Shown in pieces: positions 10,640 to 25,529 of a DNA stretch of 25,529 bases; positions within the stretch are counted from its first letter, which is position 1, and each line of letters begins with the position of its first letter. Source of the DNA: Gammaproteobacteria bacterium. Its GTDB lineage: Bacteria; Pseudomonadota; Gammaproteobacteria; BMS3Bbin11. The DNA lies in assembly GCA_030597275.1 (NCBI GenBank), contig JAUVSB010000001.1:1-25529 (forward strand), read 5' to 3'. The notes under the pieces were generated by a model. That model was not told where the DNA came from. It worked only from the letters and a program-made list of their open reading frames with translations, and searched no databases. Both the position numbers and the translations under genes were made by a program.

Positions 10640-10963
10640 TCAGACGGTAAAGCTTTCTCCACAACCGCAGGCATCTTTGACGTTGGGATTATTGAACTCA
10701 AAGCCTTCATTCAAGCCTTCACGCTTATAATCAAGCTCAGTACCATCCAGATAGATCAGGCTTTTCTTGTCGACAATAATTTTAACTCCAGCAGACTCAA
10801 ATACTTCATCTGTATCTTCAATTTCATCTACAAACTCAAGTACATAAGCAAGACCAGAACAACCAGATGTTTTAACCGCCAGGCGGAGACCGGCAGCCCC
10901 GCCTCTTTTTTCAATAAAATTAAGGACATGCTCTGCTGCTTTTTCTGTCAGACTAATTGCCAT
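10640..10963 (-). CDS. iscA: Iron-sulfur cluster assembly protein IscA
   Basis: 107 aa. Motifs [41 protein letters not shown] lies upstream. Confidence 0.98.
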
Positions 10964-11018
10964 TATATTACTCCACTACTTCACACTGATCATGGATGCT
11001 GTATCAATCCTGACTACG

Positions 11019-12230
11019 TCAGTGTGCAACCCATTCAACTTTATCCAGATCTACACCATCCTTATACATATCCCATAAGGGTGATAGCTCACGCAACCTG
11101 CCAATATTATCACGTACCAGCTGAATCGCCCGGTCTATGTCTTGTTCCGTCGTAAAACGCCCAATACTGAAACGTATGGAACTATGGGCCAGTTCATCAT
11201 TCCTGCCCAGAGCACGGAGAACATATGAGGGCTCGAGGCTGGCAGAAGTACAGGCTGAGCCTGAGGATACGGCGAGATCTTTGAGTGCCATTATTAAAGA
11301 TTCGCCTTCAACAAAGTTAAAGCTGATGTTTATATTTCCAGGGACACGATGCTCCAGATCTCCGTTAACATAAACCTCTTCCATGTCTTTGAAACCGTTA
11401 AGTAAACGATCACGCAGAGCAAGAATTCGTTCAGATTCACTGGCCATTTCTTCATTTGCTATACGGAACGCCTCACCCATGCCAACAATCTGGTGAACCG
11501 CCAGGGTACCGGAACGCATACCACGTTCATGACCACCGCCATGCATTTGCGCTTCAATTCTGATCCTCGGCTTACGTCGTACGAAAAGCGCACCGACTCC
11601 TTTTGGCCCGTAGATCTTATGGGCTGACAATGAAAGCATATCGATATCCATTGCTTTCACATCAATTTCAACTTTTCCAGCACTCTGGGCCGCGTCTGTA
11701 TGGAATATCACCTTGTGCTTATGCGCTATGCTGGCAATTGCTGCAACATCCTGAACGACACCAATTTCATTGTTAACATGCATAATACTGATTAGCGTAG
11801 TATCAGGGCGAATAGCAGCTTCAAGCTTGGCAAGATCAATCAAGCCATCGGCTTCAGGATCAAGGTAAGTGACCTCGAAACCCTCTCGTTCAAGCTGACG
11901 ACAGGTATCCAGAACGGCTTTATGCTCGGTTTTACAGGTAATGATGTGTTTACCTTTTTTACTATAGAAATGGGCAGCACCTTTAATTGCCAGGTTATCT
12001 GACTCTGTCGCTCCAGAGGTCCAGACTATTTCTCTTGGATCAGCATTGATCAAGTCAGCGACCTGCTTGCGTGCCTCATCTACGGCAGCCTCTGATGCCC
12101 AACCATAGGCATGAGAACGAGAGGCAGGGTTACCAAACTCTCCGTCCATCGTCATATATTGCATCATTTTTTCTGCCACCCGTTTGTCTATCGGGGTAGT
12201 GGCTGAGTAATCAAGGTATATCGGTCTCAT
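11019..12230 (-). CDS. iscS: Cysteine desulfurase IscS
   Basis: Start reassigned to the ATG at 12230 ([13 protein letters not shown]), giving 403 aa. PLP lysine in [10 protein letters not shown], catalytic SSGSACTS, and HSSIRFS. Confidence 0.98.
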
Positions 12231-12285
12231 CTTTTTCTGCTTCTTTATATTCGTGTTTACTATGAGTGGCGAAAGTATCGACACC

Positions 12286-13616: not shown

Positions 13617-15023
13617 TCAATTAACAGGGATTTTATTCCCGCCCTTATACCAGTTTAATTTCTCGTGTAGCTGAACCACCTGTCCCACTATAATCAACGT
13701 AGGAGCTTTGATTTCATTCAGCCTGACCAATTCCGGCAGGCTATCCAGATCACCGATGTATACCTTCTGCTGCGGTGTCGTTCCCTGTTGAATTAATGCC
13801 GCAGGAGTCGACGGTGGCATGTCATGGGCTATCAACTCTTTACAAATAACATTCACTGCCTGCAACCCCATATAGAAAACTATAGTCTGGTTAGGCTGCG
13901 CCAGCGCTGGCCAGTTTAGATTACAGGTGCCATCTTTCAGATGACCTGTAACAAAGATGCAGGCCTGTGAATAATCTCTATGGGTTAACGGTATACCGGA
14001 ATAGGTCGAGCAACCCGAGGCAGCAGTAATTGCCGGCACCACCTGAAATGGAATACCCTCTTCCATAAGCCCCTCTATCTCTTCACCGCCGCGACCAAAA
14101 ATAAACGGATCACCACCCTTCAGGCGCAAGACTTTTTTCCCTTCTTTAGCCAGGCGGATTAACAACAGATTGATATCTTCCTGCTGGATAGCGTGATTAT
14201 CTCTCTCCTTGCCAGCATAGATTCGCTCGGCATCACGGCGCACCATATCCAGTATCGGCTCAGATACCAGTCGGTCGTAAACAACGACATCTGCCTGTTG
14301 CATCATTCTGAGAGCCTTAAAGGTAAGCAGATCAGGGTCACCGGGACCCGCACCAACAAGAAATACCTGCCCAACAAGGCTTGTATCGTCGTCACTGCGG
14401 TTAATTTCATCATTTAGCGCAGATCTTGCTTCATCATCATGGCCCGCGTAGACCAGCTCCGCAATATGACCCTGTAAAATACGCTCCCAGAAAAAACGAC
14501 GGGATTCTACATTTGAGAACCGTTTTTTCACTGAGTCACGGTATTCTTCAACAATGCTTGCCAAACGACCACAGGCTGACGGGATAAATGATTCGAGTCT
14601 TCCACGAAGCAGGCGTGCCAATACAGGAGATGCACCTCCAGTTGAGACAGCAATCTGTACCGGGGAACGATCAATAATAGAAGGCATAATAAAACTGCAA
14701 AGATCCGGATTATCCACTACATTGACAGGAATTCCCCTGTTACGGGCTGCCACTGATACAGACTCATTGATATCACGTTTATTTGTGGCCGCAATGATCA
14801 CAGCCTGGTTGGTGATATCAGTTTCATTAAATTCTCGTTGCAGATGATTAATATCGTTGCTTATGGCCAATAACTCGAGCTCTTCACATAGAACTGGCGC
14901 AATAACTGTAACCCTGGCACCTGCTTTTCTAAGCAGCGCAATTTTACGAGCAGCAATCTGCCCCCCACCTACTACCAGGCAATCTTGCTCTTTTATATTT
15001 AGAAATATGGGTAAAAAATCCAT
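13617..15023 (-). CDS. cysG: Siroheme synthase CysG (precorrin-2 dehydrogenase/ferrochelatase plus uroporphyrinogen-III methyltransferase)
   Basis: 468 aa. Motifs [58 protein letters not shown]. Its stop is 1 nt from the cysE ATG. Confidence 0.97.
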
Positions 15024-15290: not shown

Positions 15291-15827
15291 TCAGGGCAGC
15301 TGGCGACAATTAGTTACTTCAATACTTTCAAAATGTTCATTAAGCCAGCGGAAGACAAGGTGAGAGGTGTAGCGCTTGAGGTCTTTTTCCACTTCGTCAC
15401 GGTTAACAATTCTTGCTGTCAGTTCCAATCTGACTTTATTCGGCGTCAAATGCTGTATGAGTTTTTCTGTCGAACCGGGTTTGCCTGGACGGGCTTTGGG
15501 CATCGTGTACATAAGGTTTTGCATGGTATCAAATCGTAAGCTGGAGAAGATGGGGCGCAGACGCTTGCGTACTTCTTCACGTACCAGTCGCGTCGCAAGC
15601 CAGGCGAGACTATCCGCTGCATCGAGTAAATCTGCATCAACAGTGGTCCTGGTTTCCTGAAAGAATTCCATGGCTGGGAAATAGCCTAGCTTTTTATCTT
15701 TTTCATAATTTGCAATCTGCCTGGCAAGCTCTTTACCAACCACCTCAGCTGCGGCAGATGAATGACTATCCAGATCTTCAGGCTTGACTGTTATAATCAA
15801 CGATATAGCTACATTTGTGACTTTCAT
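15291..15827 (-). CDS. Hypothetical protein (178 aa), last gene of the dsrS operon
   Basis: ATG ORF starting 41 bp after the dsrS stop on the same strand. Soluble-protein composition with an LGYFPAMEFF motif. No family recognised. Confidence 0.75.
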   Translation of the reverse strand: MKVTNVAISLIITVKPEDLDSHSSAAAEVVGKELARQIANYEKDKKLGYFPAMEFFQETRTTVDADLLDAADSLAWLATRLVREEVRKRLRPIFSSLRFDTMQNLMYTMPKARPGKPGSTEKLIQHLTPNKVRLELTARIVNRDEVEKDLKRYTSHLVFRWLNEHFESIEVTNCRQLP

Positions 15828-15868
15828 GAATTTAATTTTCAGTTTTCGGACCTGGAACGTGGGGCGGT

Positions 15869-17005
15869 TTAATCTTCAAGCCGACTCACCATCTCCAGCA
15901 GCGGTTCACTGACGGGTTTTATCCGTTTACGCAAAACGGATCCCAGGCAGTCGTTACCCCCGCATATCGGGTCTAGCAGTACTTCACTGAGCTGTGCGAG
16001 TCCCAGTAGTGCATGGACACGTTCTTCACTATCAGGGATGTGGCGGAGTATCCATTCAATTTCGGTTGATAGTTGCTGACATGTTTTTTCACAATCACCA
16101 TTGCAAATGCCCGCATTGAATGATTGTAAGTCCTCGATTGTTCGAAACCGTCGAGTGAGCCCAAGATCTGCAAAGTAAAAACCTATAGCATTGAATAAAG
16201 CCACAACTACATCCTGTTGCGAAGGACGCTTTAAAGCCAGGCGTATCGTTTGCAGGAACGCCCTGCCCCTGCTGCTATGTATCCAGAGATATAACTCAGC
16301 GGCTTTATTGCCGTCACGTATTGCTGAATCAAGCTGCTGACGCAGTTCTTCATAACTACGATGTGGCTCTGCCTGGAGCGGTAGATTATCGGCGCTAGAT
16401 ATAAGAAAACCGGGATAATACGCTGATTTATGGGCCGCTTTTTTCCACAGTGACTGGCGATCTTCTTCAGATAAGATACCGGGCTGAAGCAATAAACCGA
16501 CCGTTTCAACAATACGTAAAGCCTCCGCTTCAAAGGGCAGAAATTCCATCAGGAACACCGCCAGTTCCTGCCCCAGCGCATCATCAATAACGCTCTGATG
16601 ACGCAGTAGAGTACGTGCATTTTCTTCAGTTGGAAGAGCCCACCAGGCATGCCTGGCAACCTCAACCGGCAGGTTTTCTGAGTGCGCAACAGCAACGACA
16701 GCCTCAGGTTCACCGAGTTTCAACAGGTTCTGCAAACTTTCTTTTTTTCTTGTCTGCCCCATTCTTGCCCAGCGGTGAATGTAGACAGGATAACCGATAG
16801 GCGAACCGAGGATATGGGTGGAGATCAATTCTTTTACCATGCCTATGTATTTTTCATCACGGCAATTGGAATTCAATACTATCCGCCCCTCACCCCTTTC
16901 TGTCAGTGCATCGATAAGCATTTTAGATTCATCAATACGCAGGGCATATAAATTCTGCCGGAGCAATACATTCAATCGTAGATTGTCTTCATTTGTCAGT
17001 GACAT
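15869..17005 (-). CDS. dsrS: DsrS family protein (reverse-Dsr sulfur oxidation accessory/regulatory protein)
   Basis: 378 aa. The N-terminus MSLTNEDNLRLNVLL..RIDES..NCRDEKY..LGSPIGYPVY..RWARMGQ..LL.LGEPEAVVAV..ARHAWWA resembles Allochromatium vinosum DsrS as I recall it. Not confirmed by search. Confidence 0.85.
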   Translation of the reverse strand: MSLTNEDNLRLNVLLRQNLYALRIDESKMLIDALTERGEGRIVLNSNCRDEKYIGMVKELISTHILGSPIGYPVYIHRWARMGQTRKKESLQNLLKLGEPEAVVAVAHSENLPVEVARHAWWALPTEENARTLLRHQSVIDDALGQELAVFLMEFLPFEAEALRIVETVGLLLQPGILSEEDRQSLWKKAAHKSAYYPGFLISSADNLPLQAEPHRSYEELRQQLDSAIRDGNKAAELYLWIHSSRGRAFLQTIRLALKRPSQQDVVVALFNAIGFYFADLGLTRRFRTIEDLQSFNAGICNGDCEKTCQQLSTEIEWILRHIPDSEERVHALLGLAQLSEVLLDPICGGNDCLGSVLRKRIKPVSEPLLEMVSRLED

Positions 17006-17023
17006 ATCTGATTTATAGTCGTT

Positions 17024-18301
17024 TTAATTCAACTGTACACGAGTACCAAAAGGCACTTTGTTCTTACCTTTAATCAGCCATAATACATCCGTGGCTGGCT
17101 CCTGCTGAGGGAATTCACCTTCTGCATCGGTAAAATAGACTAACAAATCAGGCTGAATATCCCGCCCTTCCAACCATTGAAAAGGAGGCAAGAAAGAAGT
17201 CCCTCCACCACCCTGCAGTTTTTCCGGCAACTCAACCTCTTCCCAGGGCTCATACACCCATGGGCAGGACTCTGCAATTTTGGCATCACAGGCAAGCAGG
17301 GTAATGCGGGCGGACAATTGTCCTTTAATAGCATTTATCTCACTCAGGAACTCGCTCACTTCAGAGCTACTGATTGAGCCGCTGGTATCAACGACTACAA
17401 CAATATTAACCTCTGTACTGCGTAAGCTGGGGTATATAGCCGGCCCGTCTCTGCGGTTAGACGGGCGCATATAACTGTAATCATTTCGTGCGGTGTAACT
17501 GAGGTAACGTGCCAGCAGCATCCTCCATGGCAAGCTTGGTTGCAGCATGTGATCGACCAGACGCGCCAGGGAGCCATCCATTTTTCCTGCCTGAATCGCC
17601 TGTTGTGCAGCTCCAGCCAGTCTTTGTTGCCATTGCACAGCAAGGTCTTCGCGCTGCTGCCCGCTCAATGGACGTGGACGCTTTGCACCTCCGGCATCGG
17701 TATCGGACTCGGCTTTAGCGCCAGTTTTTCCTTTGACATCACTGCCGCCCCCTTTATCTGTGACTTCGCCATCATCAGCAGAAAGGTCGCCATTTGCAGG
17801 CATTTCACCCGAGCCCTCGCCCTGATCGCCATCATCTTCTTCTGCATCATATATGTGCTGGTCTATCGTCTGATCAGCCATTTTTTTATCCAGATAGGGA
17901 TAAATTTCTTCAGCCGTCATTTCGGCAAAACCTTTGTCATAGAGTATGCCAAAAGGCGCCGTCAGGCCTTCGTCCAGCAGCAAAGGGTTAATGGCATAAT
18001 CACAGGCAATGTCCCAGCGCCATTTAACCCGGTTATTTCTTCGCGCAAAGTGCGCCAGGCCGCAGTGCAGGGCTTCGTGAGCCAGCATGAATTCTGTTTC
18101 CGCTAGCGAAAGACCGTCAATAAACTCAGGATTGAAGTAAAGCTTCCTGGCATCCGTCGCTGTGGTTTTGCACCATTTGCGATCAGCCGCCACAAGCGGC
18201 AGGCGTAATACCAGGGCACCAAGAAAAGGTCTGTCCAGGATAAGTCGGGTACGAGCAGTAGCGAGCTTCTGTTCTATACCCGCGAGATCCATTTCAGGCA
18301 C
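17024..18301 (-). CDS. DUF2201-type putative metallopeptidase plus C-terminal VWA domain protein
   Basis: 425 aa. The GTG start overlaps the ATPase stop (TAGTG); an alternative ATG is at 18292. Contains HEALH (HExxH, 18065-18079), WDIACDYAIN, an acidic Gly-rich linker, and MIDAS elements DTSGS, GGGGTSF and FTDAEG. Confidence 0.88.
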   Translation of the reverse strand: MPEMDLAGIEQKLATARTRLILDRPFLGALVLRLPLVAADRKWCKTTATDARKLYFNPEFIDGLSLAETEFMLAHEALHCGLAHFARRNNRVKWRWDIACDYAINPLLLDEGLTAPFGILYDKGFAEMTAEEIYPYLDKKMADQTIDQHIYDAEEDDGDQGEGSGEMPANGDLSADDGEVTDKGGGSDVKGKTGAKAESDTDAGGAKRPRPLSGQQREDLAVQWQQRLAGAAQQAIQAGKMDGSLARLVDHMLQPSLPWRMLLARYLSYTARNDYSYMRPSNRRDGPAIYPSLRSTEVNIVVVVDTSGSISSSEVSEFLSEINAIKGQLSARITLLACDAKIAESCPWVYEPWEEVELPEKLQGGGGTSFLPPFQWLEGRDIQPDLLVYFTDAEGEFPQQEPATDVLWLIKGKNKVPFGTRVQLN

Positions 18302-19347
18302 TAGCGACTAAAGATCATCAGGTCAGCAATTGAATCCGCCCACTGATCAAACTCAGGAACTGAGAACATTTCCTCTCCCAGGGCACGATTCATATCAGAG
18401 ACCATCATTACCCCCATTTCACGCTGCGGGAAGCTACCGGCAAAGCTCAAAATATTGCCGATTACACTGGCTGCATTATCACTTCCCTGTTCCCGTATCG
18501 CCCTGCCCACCAGTGCTGTGGCCACGGCATATTGTAGGTCTACTTCAGCGGGTACCGGCACATCTTTACCAGCAATGATTTCATCCAGGTCTGGCATATT
18601 TGTCAGGTTCTCAATATAGGCCTTTAATTCAATTCCAGTAGCCGGACCAACACAGGCCTGCAGGGTTTCCGTAAGCAATTCAGGCTGATCTTCAAATTTC
18701 TGTATTGCATTGTTAGCAAATTCCCACGAGCGAGGGGTAGGGAATGCCACAGGGTTGTGCGCCGGGTCAAATTCAAACAGTTTTTCAGGACGAAAGCGTA
18801 GAAAGGCTATCAAGCGGTCGTCTATGCCATGAGAATACGCCCAGCTGACCCAGTCATCGAGGTTAATATCAACATCATAATGTGAGAAACGATTGGCTAA
18901 TGGCGACGGCATGGTATAGGTTACACCACGATCCCCCTGACGATTACCTGCAGCAAATATCGCCCAGCCGGGAGGTACCCTGTATTCTCCCAGGCTGCGG
19001 TCCAGAATTAACTGATAAGCGGCAGCCGAGACGCTGGGTGGCGCTGAGGTAATTTCATCCAGGAACAGGATTCCCGTATCGCCGTGACGTTCGATATTCG
19101 GCAACATTGATGGAATGGCCCATTCGACGTAATCATTCACCCGCATGGGAATGCCGCGTAAATCACTCGGTTCCATTTGTGAAAGGCGAACATCAATCAC
19201 CGCGACATCGTGTGAACTGGCTATCTGCTGCACAATCTGGGACTTGCCGACACCGGGAGCGCCCCAGAGCATAACAGGCGTATGCAGCCCCTCACTGGCA
19301 CTGAGGAACTCACGTTCCAGGACTTTTATCAGGTGAGCTGGACGCAT
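18301..19347 (-). CDS. MoxR-type AAA+ ATPase
   Basis: Start reassigned to the ATG at 19347 (MRPAHL), which overlaps the Sel1 stop as TAATG; 348 aa. Walker A GAPGVGKS, Walker B ILFLDE, plus AAGNR, LANRF and PTPRSWE. Confidence 0.92.
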   Translation of the reverse strand: MRPAHLIKVLEREFLSASEGLHTPVMLWGAPGVGKSQIVQQIASSHDVAVIDVRLSQMEPSDLRGIPMRVNDYVEWAIPSMLPNIERHGDTGILFLDEITSAPPSVSAAAYQLILDRSLGEYRVPPGWAIFAAGNRQGDRGVTYTMPSPLANRFSHYDVDINLDDWVSWAYSHGIDDRLIAFLRFRPEKLFEFDPAHNPVAFPTPRSWEFANNAIQKFEDQPELLTETLQACVGPATGIELKAYIENLTNMPDLDEIIAGKDVPVPAEVDLQYAVATALVGRAIREQGSDNAASVIGNILSFAGSFPQREMGVMMVSDMNRALGEEMFSVPEFDQWADSIADLMIFSR

Positions 19348-19772
19348 TAAAACCCCGCCTTCGCATACCATTCTTTGGCCAGTTCAGGATCTTTCTCAAC
19401 GCCATTGCCTTCTTCATACATCATAGCCAGTGTAGTTTGTGAACCGGCGAGACCCTGCTCTGCCGCCAGGGTAAACCATTTAACCGCCTGTTCCATGTCT
19501 TTGTCGACACCATCGCCTTCCATATACATGAATCCCATGCCGTGCTGCGCGATAGCATGGCCATCTTCTGCGGCTTTAAGCATCCATTTAACCGCTGACT
19601 CCGGATCACGCCCTACACCCAGACCATTTTGATACATAATGGCCACTCTATGCATTGCTTCATTATTCCCTTTCTCAGCTAAAGGCGACAGAAATCGCAT
19701 TGCTGTTGAAAAATGTTTGGCTTCGAAAGCCGACATGCCACTGGTGAAATCCATGTCATCATGCTCGCTCAT
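19347..19772 (-). CDS. Sel1-like repeat protein (three repeats, no signal peptide)
   Basis: Start at ATG 19772 (MSEHDD) with a GGAG RBS upstream; 141 aa. Three repeats of the type A...(L/M)..MY..G.GV..D...A..W...AA..G. Confidence 0.9.
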   Translation of the reverse strand: MSEHDDMDFTSGMSAFEAKHFSTAMRFLSPLAEKGNNEAMHRVAIMYQNGLGVGRDPESAVKWMLKAAEDGHAIAQHGMGFMYMEGDGVDKDMEQAVKWFTLAAEQGLAGSQTTLAMMYEEGNGVEKDPELAKEWYAKAGF

Positions 19773-20073
19773 AAATCTACTCCACACTAATCCAGTTAAT
19801 CAAAAGCTTAATAATACCAGATTGTGCTAGTAGGATATGCCCAAAAGACGTATGGCCACTATGGCTAAAGTTAAAAATTAAGCTAAAAAATACAGTAAAT
19901 TTATTGATTAATTCAACACGCTTATTTCACCTTTACGGAGAAACATGAACTGGACAAAACTACTAAACTGGGCCAAAATGAGGGATTAATTATTTACCGA
20001 ATCTTGAGATGCCTTTATATAGTCATCTCAGCATTGTTTGACAAAGTATTTAAAGACATTTAGGGGACTTTAC

Positions 20074-20268
20074 ATGAACAAAGAATATTATGATGCAGTA
20101 GTCAAGATGGAAGAAATGGGTGTTGACAATGAATACATCCAGGGCTGGCAAGGCGGCTATTTGTGCAACGTCAAACGTGAAGAACAGCGTCTAACTGAAG
20201 CCTATGAAGCAGGTTATGACGATGGCCTCGAAAAAACTCAGGACAACTTTGGCAACTGGACGAATTAA
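20074..20268 (+). CDS. Alvin_2107-like sulfur globule oxidation protein
   Basis: 64 aa from the ATG at 20074, with GGGGA upstream. The pattern MNKEYYDAVVKMEEMGVDNEYIQGWQGGY..KREEQR.TEAYEAGY.DG is recognised from memory as the Alvin_2107 family. Confidence 0.8.
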   Translation: MNKEYYDAVVKMEEMGVDNEYIQGWQGGYLCNVKREEQRLTEAYEAGYDDGLEKTQDNFGNWTN

Positions 20269-20300
20269 TCTCGATTCAGCAAAACTGGGCATCAAAGAAA

Positions 20301-20333
20301 AATAAAAGGGCGCGCATTGCGCGCCCTTTTATT
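20301..20333. terminator. Bidirectional intrinsic terminator
   Basis: AATAAAAGGGCGCGC-ATT-GCGCGCCCTTTTATT is a perfect 15-bp inverted repeat with T-tracts usable on both strands, located between convergent genes. Confidence 0.9.
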
Positions 20334-20402
20334 GTCTGCGCTCTCCGCCACCGTCATCTCTAGTCTTCGATAACAAAAACTGAAATATGCCCCCTGAGCT
20401 TT

Positions 20403-20981
20403 TCAGGTTTTGTCTTTTTCCTCATCCTCATCATCCGGCAACAAATTAGCAATACCGCGCTTTAATGTCTTGATAGCATCCGGGGCCTCAATATCAATGA
20501 TTTGTGTGGTGATCCATTTCTTCTGTCGTTCACCCATCACGGCCGTAACACATTCACCGAAGTAGCGTAGCATCGGGAAGGATGGGCCACTTTCATCGCT
20601 ATAGCCAAACTTGGAGTATTCGTTCATACGTATATTTAGTGTATTGATCAGATCTGGCTTGTAAAAGCCGTTGCCGAGGAAATCTTCCATGTTGTCCTGC
20701 ATGGTTTGCGCCATTGCTTTTGCCATGGCAGAGATAAACACAGCTCGTTCCTCTTCATCCATACGGTCGTACATCATGCGGTCGGTGACATGTATCAAAA
20801 AAGCAGCAAATTCCCAGATAATTGCCAGCCGCTGCACCTGGGTGTCAGTTTGAAAATTGTTATTTTCCAGCTCAAGTACAGCCTGGGTACATATACGCCA
20901 GGCAATAAAACCTACGACGCCCGCTATCTCTTCAGGTGTACGATCACGATTTTTTGCGCTCCACTTGCTACGAATTCTCAA
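20403..20981 (-). CDS. Hypothetical protein (192 aa)
   Basis: TTG start with GAGAG upstream. Helical globular composition (MRIRSKW, PEEIAGVVGFIAWRI, IDIEAPDA) and an acidic tail. No function recognised. Confidence 0.8.
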   Translation of the reverse strand: MRIRSKWSAKNRDRTPEEIAGVVGFIAWRICTQAVLELENNNFQTDTQVQRLAIIWEFAAFLIHVTDRMMYDRMDEEERAVFISAMAKAMAQTMQDNMEDFLGNGFYKPDLINTLNIRMNEYSKFGYSDESGPSFPMLRYFGECVTAVMGERQKKWITTQIIDIEAPDAIKTLKRGIANLLPDDEDEEKDKT

Positions 20982-21068
20982 AATAGACTCTCTTGTAGGG
21001 GTTATTTCAGTATTACTGTATTCTACAATAAGTCATGTCACAGATGAGAATACTGCTACGGGTTGTGT

Positions 21069-22112
21069 ATGGAATTTAAATTATCAGAACTGCAGAGACA
21101 TGTGCAGCACAATTGCCATATATCTGATGCATCGCATGCGGGTAACTATACCCTCTGCATCTACCTGTTAAAGATGCGCGAGTACTATCGTTGGGAACAT
21201 GCTATGGGCTTTGATGACCGTATTGATAATGACAGCATCGGTAGCTGGCTGACTGAGCGTGAATCATTCTGGGAAACGCTTGAGGAAACCCCGATCAAAC
21301 CAATTAGCATTGGTGAAGAGGAATTTGAGCCGTTTGATATCGATGGCATCAACAATGCCATAGAAAAAGAGAACCTCATTTACAGTGCCGGTTATATTCT
21401 GCGTGGCAAACCACACTTTTTTCTTGCTGACATCAAACAGACACAGGATCACGATGAATATCGTATTATCGTCAGCGGCAAAGAACATGCACGTGAACTG
21501 TCTGCACCACCCGCACTGAGCCAGGGAAACACAATTTTTATCCGCAGTGAGTCTTTGCGCCGCACAGTATGGGAGAAGGTTGAGGAAAGCCTCTGGAATA
21601 AGGGACAGTCGCCCCTGGTGCGCGCCATATCCTGTTATGATTTTGAAAACGAGCTGGAACAAAGCCTGGCGCAATTGTGTGACAGAGAAATAGAAACCCT
21701 GGTTGCCCATGAGATAGGTGAAATCATGGCAGGTAAAAAGCTTGGGGATACCTGGCAGAAAATGATAAGCGCTGCTGACCATGCACCACTAGAACTGATG
21801 TTGCGCGCCATCAGGGATAACCTGGCTGATTGCATTAATACCATCCCCAATATCATCGAGAACCTGGAGCCTGCCCGCCTGCATTTTTATATTGCCAATA
21901 TTGGGCATATGCGAAAAGTTCTGTTCCCTGCTCTGCGTGAGGCCTATGACAAATGGTTAAATGATAATTCATCAGAGCACTTTGAAAAGATTGCCAGTGA
22001 AGGTGGAATACACTGGTTATCAGTGGCTAAAGATCTTCAGGAAATGTTCAGGAAAGAAGGTAAAATAGACCGGAAGCAATTTCAGGACTTCATTGAATCC
22101 CGAACCCTGTAA
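21069..22112 (+). CDS. Sfum_1244-like protein of unknown function
   Basis: ATG at 21069 (alternative TTG at 21063). The motifs VQHNCHISDASHAGNYTLCIYLLKMREYYRWE, GKPHFFLA and LVAHEIGE are recalled as typical of the Sfum_1244 family. Confidence 0.7.
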   Translation: MEFKLSELQRHVQHNCHISDASHAGNYTLCIYLLKMREYYRWEHAMGFDDRIDNDSIGSWLTERESFWETLEETPIKPISIGEEEFEPFDIDGINNAIEKENLIYSAGYILRGKPHFFLADIKQTQDHDEYRIIVSGKEHARELSAPPALSQGNTIFIRSESLRRTVWEKVEESLWNKGQSPLVRAISCYDFENELEQSLAQLCDREIETLVAHEIGEIMAGKKLGDTWQKMISAADHAPLELMLRAIRDNLADCINTIPNIIENLEPARLHFYIANIGHMRKVLFPALREAYDKWLNDNSSEHFEKIASEGGIHWLSVAKDLQEMFRKEGKIDRKQFQDFIESRTL

Positions 22113-22155
22113 GTATTTTTAACAAAGCCACCAAAATCCAGATAAAGAAATAAGC

Positions 22156-22761
22156 ATGAACGACAAACCTGCCAGCACTGAACTGAAATCAATCAGGGAA
22201 ATCATCCCTAATACTTTTATCTTTGAAAAAAAGAACGCACTACCGGATGAGCTGTGCGATGAGATGATTCGGCGCTTCGAAGCCAGCGAACAGGATCAGT
22301 ACCCCGGCCGGATTGGCCAAACGGTAAGCAGCAATCAAAGTATTAAAAAGACCACGGATCTTGTAGTGAGCGGAAAACCTGATTGGAAGGACATTGATCG
22401 TGCCCTGTTTCAGTCACTGGGCCGAGCTGTGCTTGAATTCCGGGAGAAATATAGTTACTTCAAGGGCCCCTTCAAGGACATGGGCTACAATTTGCAACGT
22501 TATTCCCCTGGCGAATATTATCACTGGCACATCGATGGTGGCAGCCATGACTTCAGTCAGCGGCAACTGGTTGCTCTCTGGTACCTGAATGATGTGGAAG
22601 GCCCTGGTGGTGAAACAGAGTTTCTATTTCAAAATGCAAAAATAAAACCTGAACAGGGAAAACTGGTGTTATTCCCCCCTTTCTGGACCCATGAGCACCG
22701 GGCCGTCAAGCTTGAGAAAGGTGTTAAGTATATTGCCACGACATGGGTTGTTTTTGCTTAA
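22156..22761 (+). CDS. 2OG-Fe(II) oxygenase (prolyl-hydroxylase-like)
   Basis: 201 aa. Facial triad HID...H (YHWHIDG, WTHEHRA), YLNDV.GPGGET.F, GKLVLFPP, and the 2OG-binding K in KYIATTW. Confidence 0.92.
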   Translation: MNDKPASTELKSIREIIPNTFIFEKKNALPDELCDEMIRRFEASEQDQYPGRIGQTVSSNQSIKKTTDLVVSGKPDWKDIDRALFQSLGRAVLEFREKYSYFKGPFKDMGYNLQRYSPGEYYHWHIDGGSHDFSQRQLVALWYLNDVEGPGGETEFLFQNAKIKPEQGKLVLFPPFWTHEHRAVKLEKGVKYIATTWVVFA

Positions 22762-22823
22762 AGCAGGTTAAAGAGGAAAGGTAAAAGGAAACCCAAAAGC
22801 AATCCTCATTTACCTATTACCTA
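22762..22823. repeat. Degenerate heptamer tracts in inverted orientation between convergent genes (possible terminator)
   Basis: The plus strand reads CAGGTTA AAGAGGA AAGGTAA AAGGAAA, then TCCTCAT TTACCTA TTACCTA, whose reverse complement is TAGGTAA TAGGTAA ATGAGGA. Confidence 0.4.
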
Positions 22824-25529
22824 AAATCCTAAAGTATCTGCGCCTAGTGTCCCATTTAGTTTCACCAGATAGTCGTCGCTTTGAACATAACTTAAGCGCT
22901 CATGCGCTGCGGTTATCTTATGTGCAATATCCAGGTCTTCTATCACATCGGCATAACCATTTTTTTCGGTAAAACTAGTCAGATAAGCTATATGCCGCTG
23001 CCAAAGCCTCGTTTCTCGATTCTGCTTGGTCTTGAGTCGTTCATGATACCAGTCTGATTGCAGCAGGTATTCACGAGTAAACATAGAACGGATATCCTGA
23101 TGCTGGATATCCTTACCCAGATATTCCCCTTCAGCCATAATATGTAGCAGAGCCTGTAATGGCGGGCAGGCATCTTCTATGCTTCCGTCATCAATATATT
23201 GCTGAGCAACTATTTTTTGCGCCTCAACAATATTGTTTATTCCATCAACGAAAACCTCCAGGCTCTGAGTTTCAGGTTTAAGTATTTCTTCAGTGAAAAC
23301 CGCATTGGGATTATCAAATATTTTACCAAGGAAGCCATGAACGAAACGATCGGTTATACGGTAGCCAAGCCGACTAGCGAGAATGGTACTACCTCCATGT
23401 TCAAAGTCTTCAAGCTGCTCCAGGTAGCCTTTTTCGATCATTACTTCAGGCTTACGCTGCTCTACAGATAAACGAGACCAAATCTCAGGTATCAACAGGC
23501 TAATGTCATGATCAACCTGTACATTTGGCCCGACATGACCCGCCGAGCTGGAGTAACCGGCGTAGCCAGTCAATATGTAGGAAACCAGCGCATTGTTCAG
23601 ATCTACTGTAGGCCGCAGGGCATTGAATGGTCCCTTGGTCAGAGCACCTTCACTGCCCGCACCGGTAGTCGATGGAGACTTACCTGTCAGGCTACAGACA
23701 AAGTCCATAAACAGTTCCGGCAACTCCTGATAATGGATGGGATTATAAACAGCTAAGGGTCGAATACCCGGCTCAGGCGGGTTGTTGCGACGACCAGTCA
23801 ATACGGCATCAACAGGATGGCAAATCGGTTGCCCCAATGGGACTTTCCGATGGAAGCGGGCACCCATTTCAGCGATATAACTTCGCACTGGATCGACCAG
23901 GTCCTGACGATCCTGAAGATATCTTGGGTTTTTACTGGGTAAACCATCAACAAGCCTTGGATGTGCCGATGAAACAACAAAACTGTCACCTTCATCATAG
24001 GCTTGCTGCAGACGTTTTTTCATTGGTGCTGAATAGTTATTAAATGTCAGTACATCCTCAACAACAGCTGCCAGATTTTCACCTTTTAATGGTTCATAGT
24101 TAGCAAGAAAATTGCCAGGCTTGGCAATATCTGATTCCGCCTGACTGTCAAAACCCGGAATGATGGCATCATCGGGGCGCTGAAATAAACGGTACTCACA
24201 ATTGCTAACCAGCTTTACGCTATGCTCCCCTTTTATGCTTTCCTGACAGCCTTCAAGGCAGCTGGGCGGTACAACAATGGAGACAGTGATATCATCTTCT
24301 TTCTGTATCTTTTCTGTGGCAATAAAGTCCTGTCTGACTTTGAAGATTCGCCATTTCCCAGCTTCATCGAAACCCATACGAAGATACGAGGCAATGATGC
24401 GCCGGTCATACAGTTTTATCTCATGGCCTGCCGCGCCATCAATTTCATCAACAGAGATATAGTCACGCCAGTTCTCACCCCAGGAATCACGATAGAAACG
24501 CTTGATGAGGAACACCAGCGCAAGGATCCTTGGTGGTATGGTCATTAACCATTCATTGTACTCATCTTTATAACTTGGCGAAGGTGTCAGTAATTTGATC
24601 ACTGAACCAAGACTTCGCTTTGGACTGACGGGCCTGCGAGAAGGATCTCTGTCTTCATCTTCAAATCCCGGTTTGAAGCGGTCACGGTAGTCTGCCCGGT
24701 ATATCTCTTCCACACGATCCAGATCAGTCTGCAAATCATCCACGAATAAAGGACCATAAATCACTGTGTCGTCGATTGATTTGGAAATTTCAGACTTGCC
24801 ACCACCTGATACTGTGCTGGGTTTGTGACAAAACGTCCCTTCAGGGTCAGTACCGATCAAACGCCAGGAAGGTGCACTGGGATGCTTATGCATCTCAACC
24901 TTGTAACCATTGGGCTGGATATAGGTCTTTCCCGGCTGCAGGCGTATAGTCCTGGTGTCACCGTCGTCTTCCCATTGTATGGTTTGCGCCTCCAGGTCCA
25001 TGCGTAAATCCTGATGAACATAGACCACCTCAGGATATTTCTTGTCAATACCATAACCCTCTGGTTGCAGATCCATTATGTGACCATAACGTTCTACAAT
25101 ATCCTGAAATTTGTAGCCTGGCTCACGTGTTACAGAGTCAACACCAAACTCAATACCATGATTTCTTCGTGGGAAAGCCAGCGCCCCACCGGCATGTTCC
25201 TCTTCGGCAAGGCCAAACAGGTTGGCTGAAAATCCAATCTGCGTTTTGACCTCTTTTTTGCAGTATCCATAATAGTTATCAGCAAGAATAGTTACGATTA
25301 CACCACTTTCATCACGTGCTGTTATTTTGAATGGCATGCCATTGTTATAAAGCTCTGCCTTCTCATGCCAGCACATGCCTTCTGCTATTTGTCGTTCATT
25401 AGCATCATCAATATGTGGCAAGCCAACAGATTTTTTTGTTAATTGAGGCAGGTGTGGAGCAAGGATGACGCAGCCGGTATGGCCCGTCCAGTGTGTTACA
25501 TCCAGTCCAGCATCAAATTCTGCCAGGAA
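22821..25529 (-). CDS. Pyrophosphate-type phosphoenolpyruvate carboxykinase (PPi-PEPCK), 5' end outside the window
   Basis: The frame stays open from 25421 to the window edge (translating FLAEFDAGLDVTHWTGHTGCVILAPHL). Motifs NYYGYCKKEVKTQ, EEEHAGGA, FCHKPSTVSGGGKSEISKS, CEYRLFQRPDDAI and SLTGKSPSTTGAGSEGALTKGPFNAL are recalled from Propionibacterium/Entamoeba PPi-PEPCK. Confidence 0.8.
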   Translation of the reverse strand, partial: FLAEFDAGLDVTHWTGHTGCVILAPHLPQLTKKSVGLPHIDDANERQIAEGMCWHEKAELYNNGMPFKITARDESGVIVTILADNYYGYCKKEVKTQIGFSANLFGLAEEEHAGGALAFPRRNHGIEFGVDSVTREPGYKFQDIVERYGHIMDLQPEGYGIDKKYPEVVYVHQDLRMDLEAQTIQWEDDGDTRTIRLQPGKTYIQPNGYKVEMHKHPSAPSWRLIGTDPEGTFCHKPSTVSGGGKSEISKSIDDTVIYGPLFVDDLQTDLDRVEEIYRADYRDRFKPGFEDEDRDPSRRPVSPKRSLGSVIKLLTPSPSYKDEYNEWLMTIPPRILALVFLIKRFYRDSWGENWRDYISVDEIDGAAGHEIKLYDRRIIASYLRMGFDEAGKWRIFKVRQDFIATEKIQKEDDITVSIVVPPSCLEGCQESIKGEHSVKLVSNCEYRLFQRPDDAIIPGFDSQAESDIAKPGNFLANYEPLKGENLAAVVEDVLTFNNYSAPMKKRLQQAYDEGDSFVVSSAHPRLVDGLPSKNPRYLQDRQDLVDPVRSYIAEMGARFHRKVPLGQPICHPVDAVLTGRRNNPPEPGIRPLAVYNPIHYQELPELFMDFVCSLTGKSPSTTGAGSEGALTKGPFNALRPTVDLNNALVSYILTGYAGYSSSAGHVGPNVQVDHDISLLIPEIWSRLSVEQRKPEVMIEKGYLEQLEDFEHGGSTILASRLGYRITDRFVHGFLGKIFDNPNAVFTEEILKPETQSLEVFVDGINNIVEAQKIVAQQYIDDGSIEDACPPLQALLHIMAEGEYLGKDIQHQDIRSMFTREYLLQSDWYHERLKTKQNRETRLWQRHIAYLTSFTEKNGYADVIEDLDIAHKITAAHERLSYVQSDDYLVKLNGTLGADTLGF

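Follow-up and report, generated by a model that had tools for sequence, protein, structure and literature searches.

DsrS, a protein whose function was not resolved in the genome paper on Allochromatium vinosum (PMC3368242), is encoded together with a AAA+ ATPase, a VWA-domain protein, and a Sel1-repeat protein on a gammaproteobacterial contig (JAUVSB010000001.1) and in most of the relatives that we sampled. We refer to these genes as the module and to the whole stretch of DNA analyzed as the window, which is an entire 25,529-bp contig (C36) of a metagenome-assembled genome (MAG) that measures 1.15 Mb and is 60% complete. DNA resembling the window occurs in cold-seep and marine-sediment metagenomes; no RNA data set containing the locus was among those listed. 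The link of the module to sulfur oxidation is strongly supported, and comparative genomics lends good support to the prediction of a AAA+/VWA machine dedicated to Dsr-based sulfur oxidation. A first-pass annotation of the window had proposed a system of this kind and had named three genomic findings that would count against it: absence of linkage between the ATPase/VWA genes and dsrS in other genomes, occurrence of these genes independently of reverse Dsr, and a 378-aa open reading frame (ORF) other than DsrS. We looked for all three, and the module passed each time.

The module and the gene that follows it form a run of five co-oriented genes on the minus strand (15291-19787):

19347-19772, minus strand: Sel1-repeat protein, 141 aa from an ATG at 19772; an upstream GTG at 19787 is also open
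18301-19347, minus strand: MoxR-class (AAA_5) AAA+ ATPase, 348 aa if begun at Met9 and 356 aa if begun at an upstream ATG at 19371
17024-18301, minus strand: DUF2201 zincin-like/VWA protein, GTG start, with DUF2201_N and DUF2201 matches
15869-17005, minus strand: DsrS homolog, 378 aa, with homology to proteins named DsrS
15291-15827, minus strand: 178-aa conserved protein (hyp178), without a family match

The coordinates bear out the overlaps and gaps that had been described for this operon. The ortholog alignment consensus begins at Met9 of the ATPase (base 19347), a start that overlaps the Sel1 stop codon by one base (TAATG). Likewise, the ATPase gene ends and DUF2201 begins, with a GTG, on base 18301 (TAGTG), and the remaining gaps are 18 nt between DUF2201 and DsrS and 41 nt between DsrS and the 178-aa gene. 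On the coding strand, no strong terminator-like site was found inside the operon. All five products are soluble by hydropathy and are without signal peptides.

The gene order is widely conserved around dsrS. A scan of one genome per species gave 471 relatives of DsrS, from which we kept the best 80 loci; these are the nearest relatives of the query, so that the linked fraction is biased upward. These loci come from Thiohalophilus, Thiohalobacter, Thiotrichaceae, Ectothiorhodospiraceae, Thioalkalispiraceae, Thiohalomonadales, Arenicellales, and many other Gammaproteobacteria. Sixty-four of them have at least 3.6 kb of DNA 5′ of dsrS and make up the informative upstream set. There, the MoxR-DUF2201 pair lies directly 5′ of dsrS in 53 of 64 loci, which confirms the linkage in other genomes. 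The full order Sel1-MoxR-DUF2201-DsrS is found in 46 loci and MoxR-DUF2201-DsrS in 7; in another 7, Sel1 is directly 5′ of DsrS with no ATPase pair at that site, 1 locus has an insertion, and 3 have none of these orders. Unbiased clustering of all ORFs from the 80 loci returned the same genes as the top neighbors (DUF2201 in 58, MoxR in 55, Sel1 in 42, and hyp178 in 40). In 29 of 61 loci, some of which have no ATPase pair, the 178-aa gene stands directly 3′ of dsrS; it belongs with DsrS, not with that pair.

DsrS and DUF2201 also travel together when they are not adjacent. In a phylogenetic profile of 401 genomes drawn evenly from the class (~240 families; strong matches counted), DsrS is present in 107 genomes, a DUF2201 ortholog (51-65% identity) in 108, and dsrA in 121. 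DsrS and the DUF2201 ortholog occur together in 105 of the 110 genomes that hold either, and they are adjacent in only ~53 of these 105, as read from coordinates; the rest keep both genes at separate sites. Further genomes with an unlinked dsrS hold the DUF2201 ortholog elsewhere in five cases of five. dsrA is carried by 97 of the 107 genomes with DsrS versus 24 of the 294 without it, so the ATPase/VWA genes and DsrS are largely confined to genomes with dsrA. Fisher P values overstate the significance of these counts, since related genomes are not independent; even so, the recurrence of the DsrS/DUF2201 pattern across many families and the cases of co-loss are together strong. Among 12 genomes of the window's order, the same eight carry both DsrS and DUF2201. 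In G006, a 99% complete congener with dsrA, DsrS is reduced to its C-terminal half and interrupted by a TAA (G006:C9:131436-132074), and the DUF2201 ortholog is absent, which looks like co-loss of the module. In G095, DUF2201 adjoins a truncated DsrS-like remnant. In a 351-genome sample of the phylum, the three genomes with DsrS (3/351) all belonged to this same class, and no match came from outside it. Close relatives in the window's order carry dsrA. It was not found in the assembled part of the window's MAG, which is 60% complete and in which dsrAB was not assembled. As a separate observation, this MAG encodes aprA (G000:C94:36-1892; 949 bits), and the organism therefore has the adenosine 5′-phosphosulfate (APS)-reductase branch of sulfite oxidation.

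The physical relation of the module to the dsr operon varies among lineages. dsrA lies within the 10-kb flanks of only 2 of the 80 loci. Distances between dsrA and dsrS were therefore taken from whole-genome coordinates, and the two genes, where they share a contig, usually lie 9-26 kb from each other. The retrieved sequences confirmed four arrangements. In one, the canonical operon ends in dsrS and MoxR-DUF2201 lies elsewhere; in L094, the pair is ~8.5 kb upstream of dsrA in divergent orientation, and the genes for a 2-oxoglutarate (2OG)-dependent oxygenase, a DUF6866 protein, and proteins of 192 and 64 aa lie between. In another, the module is divergent from dsrAB. A third has dsrAB followed on one strand by MoxR-DUF2201-DsrS (L093), to which L096 adds Sel1. 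In the last (L092, L095), dsrA directly follows MoxR-DUF2201-DsrS on the same strand. In some lineages, the module is fused to dsr genes, either before dsrA or after dsrR, and repeated independent fusion argues for a functional link over shared ecology. We also observed that no dsrB was detected by tblastn 3′ of dsrA in L092:4900-7726 and L095:6765-7970, where the next large ORFs are without a Pfam match. Published genome papers note only that dsrS is "located elsewhere," outside the dsr cluster, and leave its neighbors unnamed (PMC5328954, PMC5024460).

The identity of the 378-aa ORF as a DsrS homolog holds. The protein has more than 2,000 homologs, and its full-length identity to those named DsrS is 43-49%; full-length relatives at 46-49% bear that name in NCBI or UniRef. 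It is also 39.7% identical over residues 3-367 to a 376-aa homolog from G035 (L091:13538-14668) that is the last gene of a canonical dsr cluster with the order dsrA, dsrB, DsrE, DsrC, DsrM-like, DsrK-like, DsrL-like, DsrO-like, DsrP (NrfD), DsrN (CobB-like), DsrR (IscA-like), DsrS. The canonical order in A. vinosum is dsrABEFHCMKLJOPNRS (PMC3368242). In the canonical operon, dsrS is preceded by dsrN, which encodes a CobB-like amidase, and by the IscA-like dsrR. Neither the DsrS ORF nor the 178-aa ORF matched a Pfam or NCBIfam model. The AlphaFold2 model of DsrS (pLDDT 90.7, pTM 0.83) has a small N-terminal β-sheet followed by an α-solenoid. It matched only DsrS clusters in the AlphaFold database (AFDB; TM 0.71-0.91), a Foldseek search of the Protein Data Bank (PDB) gave nothing above the noise expected of helical repeats, and the DsrS sequence had no match in the PDB. 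The modeled fold suggests a binding scaffold without a catalytic signature. For the 178-aa protein, AlphaFold2 predicts (pLDDT 93.2) a core of the ferredoxin/ACT-like type into which helices are inserted; Foldseek against the PDB, VIA-align in wide mode, and AFDB clusters returned generic ferredoxin-like matches only and no specific structural relative.

Profile hidden Markov model scores agree with the families first assigned to the other three proteins. The ATPase matches AAA_5 (35.7 bits versus a cut-off of 22) and carries Walker A (GAPGVGKS), Walker B (ILFLDE), and sensor-1 (AAGN) motifs. Across 53 orthologs, Walker A, Walker B, the sensor-1 Asn, and an LANRF motif are invariant. The ATPase is exceptionally constrained: mean column identity is 81% in its alignment versus 63% in that of DsrS, whose members include much closer relatives. 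A profile of the ATPase found the AAA domains of midasin as its best relatives in the PDB (4e-15), followed by CbbQ (9e-5) and NorQ (9e-4). It did not reach the described MoxR subfamilies (AAA_3, 20.7 versus 27; bpMoxR, 16.3 versus 27; CbbQ_C, not found), and no NCBIfam model matched. Judged from its sequence, the protein is a MoxR-class AAA_5-type motor outside the described subfamilies (MRP/AAA_3, CbbQ-GvpN-NorQ, RavA, and bpMoxR).

The gene for its VWA partner adjoins that of the ATPase through the 1-base overlap, and the pair is kept in 55-58 of the 80 loci. The partner matches DUF2201_N (158.7 bits versus 23.2) and the VWA-like DUF2201 (78.9 bits versus 26.4). Its domains are, in order, an N-terminal zincin-like domain with the motif HEALH, an acidic Gly-rich linker, and a C-terminal VWA-like domain with a metal ion-dependent adhesion site (MIDAS). 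The MIDAS elements are DTSGS, GGGGT, and FTD, whose ligand residues (D-x-S-G-S, T, and D) do not vary in any of the 58 orthologs. Thus, the Walker and MIDAS motifs, which had been called intact, are so. The HExxH motif is intact in 48 of the 58, whereas the first His and the Glu are replaced in 10 (KQALH or QQALH). In these 10, the ATPase, MIDAS site, and linkage to DsrS persist, so that a classical zincin active site is not a requirement of the conserved function. Six residues (C44, H79, C80, H84, C100, and C338) are invariant, including in orthologs without the HE of HExxH, and they may form a metal or cofactor site distinct from the zincin center. A search of the PDB with the DUF2201 protein sequence gave no significant relative. 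The Sel1 protein is acidic and has three repeats (PF08238, 120 bits versus a cut-off of 30.7).

Other features of the window on either side of the operon are as follows:

13617-15023, minus strand: cysG (siroheme synthase), NF007922 at 644.9 bits, after a 267-nt gap behind the 178-aa gene
19773-20073: intergenic region from which the Sel1 operon and the 64-aa gene diverge, a presumed promoter region
20074-20268, plus strand: 64-aa acidic protein, divergent from the operon, without a family match
20403-20981, minus strand: 192-aa conserved hypothetical protein, without a family match
21063-22112, plus strand: DUF6866/Sfum_1244-family protein, with Pfam and NCBIfam matches
22156-22761, plus strand: 2OG-Fe(II) oxygenase, with Pfam and NCBIfam matches

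Sigma-70-like matches within the presumed promoter region (19773-20073) are weak only. A strong bidirectional terminator at 20301-20333 ends the neighboring transcripts. Past the 267-nt gap, the genes 3′ of the operon are cysG, cysE, iscR, iscS, iscA, hscB, hscA, and fdx. Among the 80 loci, additional neighbors are DUF6866 (34), the 64-aa gene (32), the 192-aa gene (31), the 2OG oxygenase (28), and cysG (25), and cysG lies at most 2.5 kb 3′ of dsrS in 22 of 61 loci. In the 42 loci with at least 9 kb of upstream DNA, the 64-aa gene is present in 35, the 192-aa gene in 27, DUF6866 in 27, and the 2OG oxygenase in 26. The conserved sulfur-oxidation neighborhood is therefore wider than the five-gene operon, with the genes of 20074-22761 kept in 26-35 of 42 loci.

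Several observations concern the margins of this neighborhood. DsrS-hyp178 is followed by a glutaredoxin in 10 loci and by EgtB/EgtD-type ergothioneine genes in 9 (for example, L046:11140-13990, L064:11138-14704, and L007:11697-13360), and a link to low-molecular-weight thiol chemistry is possible. In the isc operon of the window (10640-12284), an iscA-type gene (10640-10963) comes directly after iscS (11019-12284) and is itself followed by hscB, hscA, and fdx; no iscU-sized ORF is listed between iscS and the iscA-type gene. At 22821-25421, an 866-aa ORF (902 aa if open-ended) is without a Pfam match, and 85% identity is kept in a congener locus (L004).

Our favored reading, which we hold to be probable, if only by a little, is that the ATPase, its VWA partner, DsrS, and Sel1 would constitute a non-proteolytic remodeling or maturation machine of the reverse-Dsr pathway, with DsrS and Sel1 as adaptors and a soluble Dsr component as the client. 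The mechanism is drawn by analogy with CbbQ/CbbO and NorQ/NorD; that the proteins form a complex, that DsrS is an adaptor, which client is served, and that the machine is non-proteolytic are all inferred. In outline, a predicted hexamer of the MoxR ATPase would provide the mechanical work, the MIDAS site of the VWA domain would grip an acidic residue of a partner protein, and DsrS and Sel1, as repeat scaffolds, would select or present the client. The most likely client would be DsrAB while its siro(haem)amide-[4Fe-4S] cofactor is being inserted, or else another soluble Dsr protein. A maturation role fits because of the association with cysG, dsrN, and dsrR and because of the cytoplasmic location of the products. 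A more specific version, which we offer as a tentative and rather less probable one, is a hitherto undescribed four-part machine, built of DsrS, Sel1, the MoxR ATPase, and the zincin-like/VWA protein, whose task would be to load or repair the siro(haem)amide-[4Fe-4S] cofactor in reverse DsrAB. If true, it would explain why dsrS is found with dsrN and dsrR or with cysG, and also the deletion defect reportedly described as "post-transcriptional." The invariant His/Cys cluster of the N-terminal domain would then be a site that handles a metal or cofactor, not a protease center. A full-text literature search found no paper that joins DsrS with MoxR, AAA, or VWA proteins and none that characterizes DUF2201, in agreement with the earlier statement that no system of this composition has been characterized.

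Several observations weigh against a maturation machine for Dsr. DsrS and DUF2201 are absent from 24 of the 121 dsrA genomes, including the close relatives G007, G014, and G015, and the module is therefore dispensable for Dsr in about one fifth of them, which agrees with the phenotype of the dsrS deletion, reportedly "important but not essential." Conversely, two genomes carry the module without dsrA or dsrB: G182 (100% complete) and G352 (93%). Most of the ten DsrS genomes without dsrA are incomplete, and G182 is the cleanest exception to the Dsr association. Its DUF2201 and DsrS genes are adjacent (G182:C40:265747-268154), it is also without aprA, and its one NIR_SIR-domain gene is 160 kb away. 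The HExxH motif, intact in 48 of 58 orthologs, keeps proteolysis in contention. The models of DsrS and hyp178 have generic folds that are uninformative about the client. Finally, Grimm, Franz, and Dahl are said to have assigned DsrS in 2011 to the post-transcriptional control of dsr, which could mean a regulatory role instead of one in maturation.

The intact motif is the starting point for one alternative, namely that the module is a split ATP-dependent protease. Here a Dsr-related protein, once unfolded or presented by the ATPase, would be cut by the VWA partner's zincin-like domain, giving a regulated turnover that resembles post-transcriptional control. We consider this unlikely. The HEALH sequence of the window, the invariant His five residues later, and the annotation of DUF2201_N as a putative metallopeptidase domain all speak for cleavage, as does a weak, non-significant likeness to the minimal gluzincin MJ1213 around the motif (E 0.09), and the deletion phenotype, reportedly post-transcriptional, would suit it. 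However, the orthologs with KQALH or QQALH have lost the first His and the catalytic Glu and have kept the rest of the module, and catalysis is therefore not required for the conserved function. Moreover, no third zinc ligand was identified in the domain, and no characterized MoxR/VWA pair, among them CbbQ/CbbO, NorQ/NorD, and RavA/ViaA, is known to be a protease. The post-transcriptional phenotype could be read differently, with DsrS in a regulatory role: as a helical-repeat factor that binds RNA or protein, for instance, it would control dsr translation, and the MoxR/VWA pair would switch its state. The modeled α-solenoid would be compatible with RNA or peptide binding, and dsrS has its own promoter in A. 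vinosum (PMC3368242). Nevertheless, DsrS has neither an RNA-binding family nor a significant structural match (its PUF-type matches, with E about 1, are noise), and its adjacency to cysG, dsrN, and dsrR suits cofactor handling better. Failed maturation would presumably also give less protein at unchanged transcription, and we regard a regulatory DsrS as improbable.

To a similar degree, we doubt that the module is a general thiol, siroheme, or Fe-S housekeeping module of sulfur-oxidizing Gammaproteobacteria, which would share the ecology of Dsr and not act on Dsr proteins. Such a role would be in keeping with its presence in G182 and G352, with the cysG-cysE-iscRSA-hscBA-fdx neighbors in the window, and with the glutaredoxin and EgtB/EgtD genes behind DsrS-hyp178. 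It is at odds with the operon fusions to dsrA or the dsr operon in four lineages, with the distribution of dsrA among genomes with and without DsrS, and with the failure to find DsrS outside the class in the phylum sample. MoxR-vWA ternary systems have also been proposed as NTPase-based conflict systems, and the ATPase has a weak bpMoxR match (16.3 bits, below the cut-off of 27). We nonetheless rejected a conflict or defense function as highly improbable. None of the VWA protein, DsrS, and hyp178 matched a PADLOC model, the ATPase had just weak, sub-threshold P-loop matches there (best E 2e-5, 21.7 bits), and the genes show stable chromosomal synteny across many families, without mobile genes and with the high mean column identity of the ATPase noted above.

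The partnership described here may be relevant in several respects. DsrS has been unexplained since the dsr gene set was defined, and a near-obligate AAA+/VWA partnership gives it testable partners. Rubisco, NO reductase, and CO dehydrogenase have dedicated assembly or repair factors, and our analysis suggests one for the main sulfur-oxidizing enzyme of many of the Gammaproteobacteria that dominate sediments, seeps, and symbioses. More broadly, the large, uncharacterized DUF2201 family, which combines a zincin-like and a VWA domain, gains its first defined physiological context.

It is useful to compare the module with known systems. In CbbQ/CbbO, the Rubisco activase, and in NorQ/NorD, which inserts FeB into cNOR, the nitric oxide reductase that depends on cytochrome c, a AAA+ motor and a MIDAS adaptor serve one enzyme. 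By function, these are probably the closest analogs. Like them, the module has adjacent, translationally coupled genes for an AAA_5-type ATPase and a MIDAS VWA protein that are genomically tied to one enzyme system. Unlike CbbQ and NorQ, the ATPase lies outside their subfamily, with CbbQ_C not found and midasin as its best solved relative; unlike CbbO and NorD, which are not known to have such a domain, the VWA partner has an N-terminal zincin-like DUF2201_N. The module also has two more fixed partners than either pair, Sel1 and DsrS. The likeness to midasin (Rea1), the closest solved relative of the ATPase, extends to the combination of an AAA_5 motor with a partner-gripping MIDAS domain, whereas midasin is a single giant polypeptide of ribosome biogenesis and the window encodes motor and MIDAS on separate bacterial proteins. 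Class I chelatases (BchI/BchD and CobS/CobT) likewise combine AAA+ with VWA and act on tetrapyrroles, and the module may resemble them in that its AAA+/VWA pair has a tetrapyrrole gene, cysG, nearby; in contrast to them, the window neighborhood is without the large substrate-binding subunit BchH or CobN, and the proteins have no sequence match to these families. DsrS itself resembles its A. vinosum counterpart in being a soluble homolog of 370-380 aa. The difference lies in its genomic setting: in A. vinosum, dsrS closes the dsr operon, whereas in the window and in most of the sampled relatives, it is the fourth gene of a Sel1-MoxR-VWA operon.

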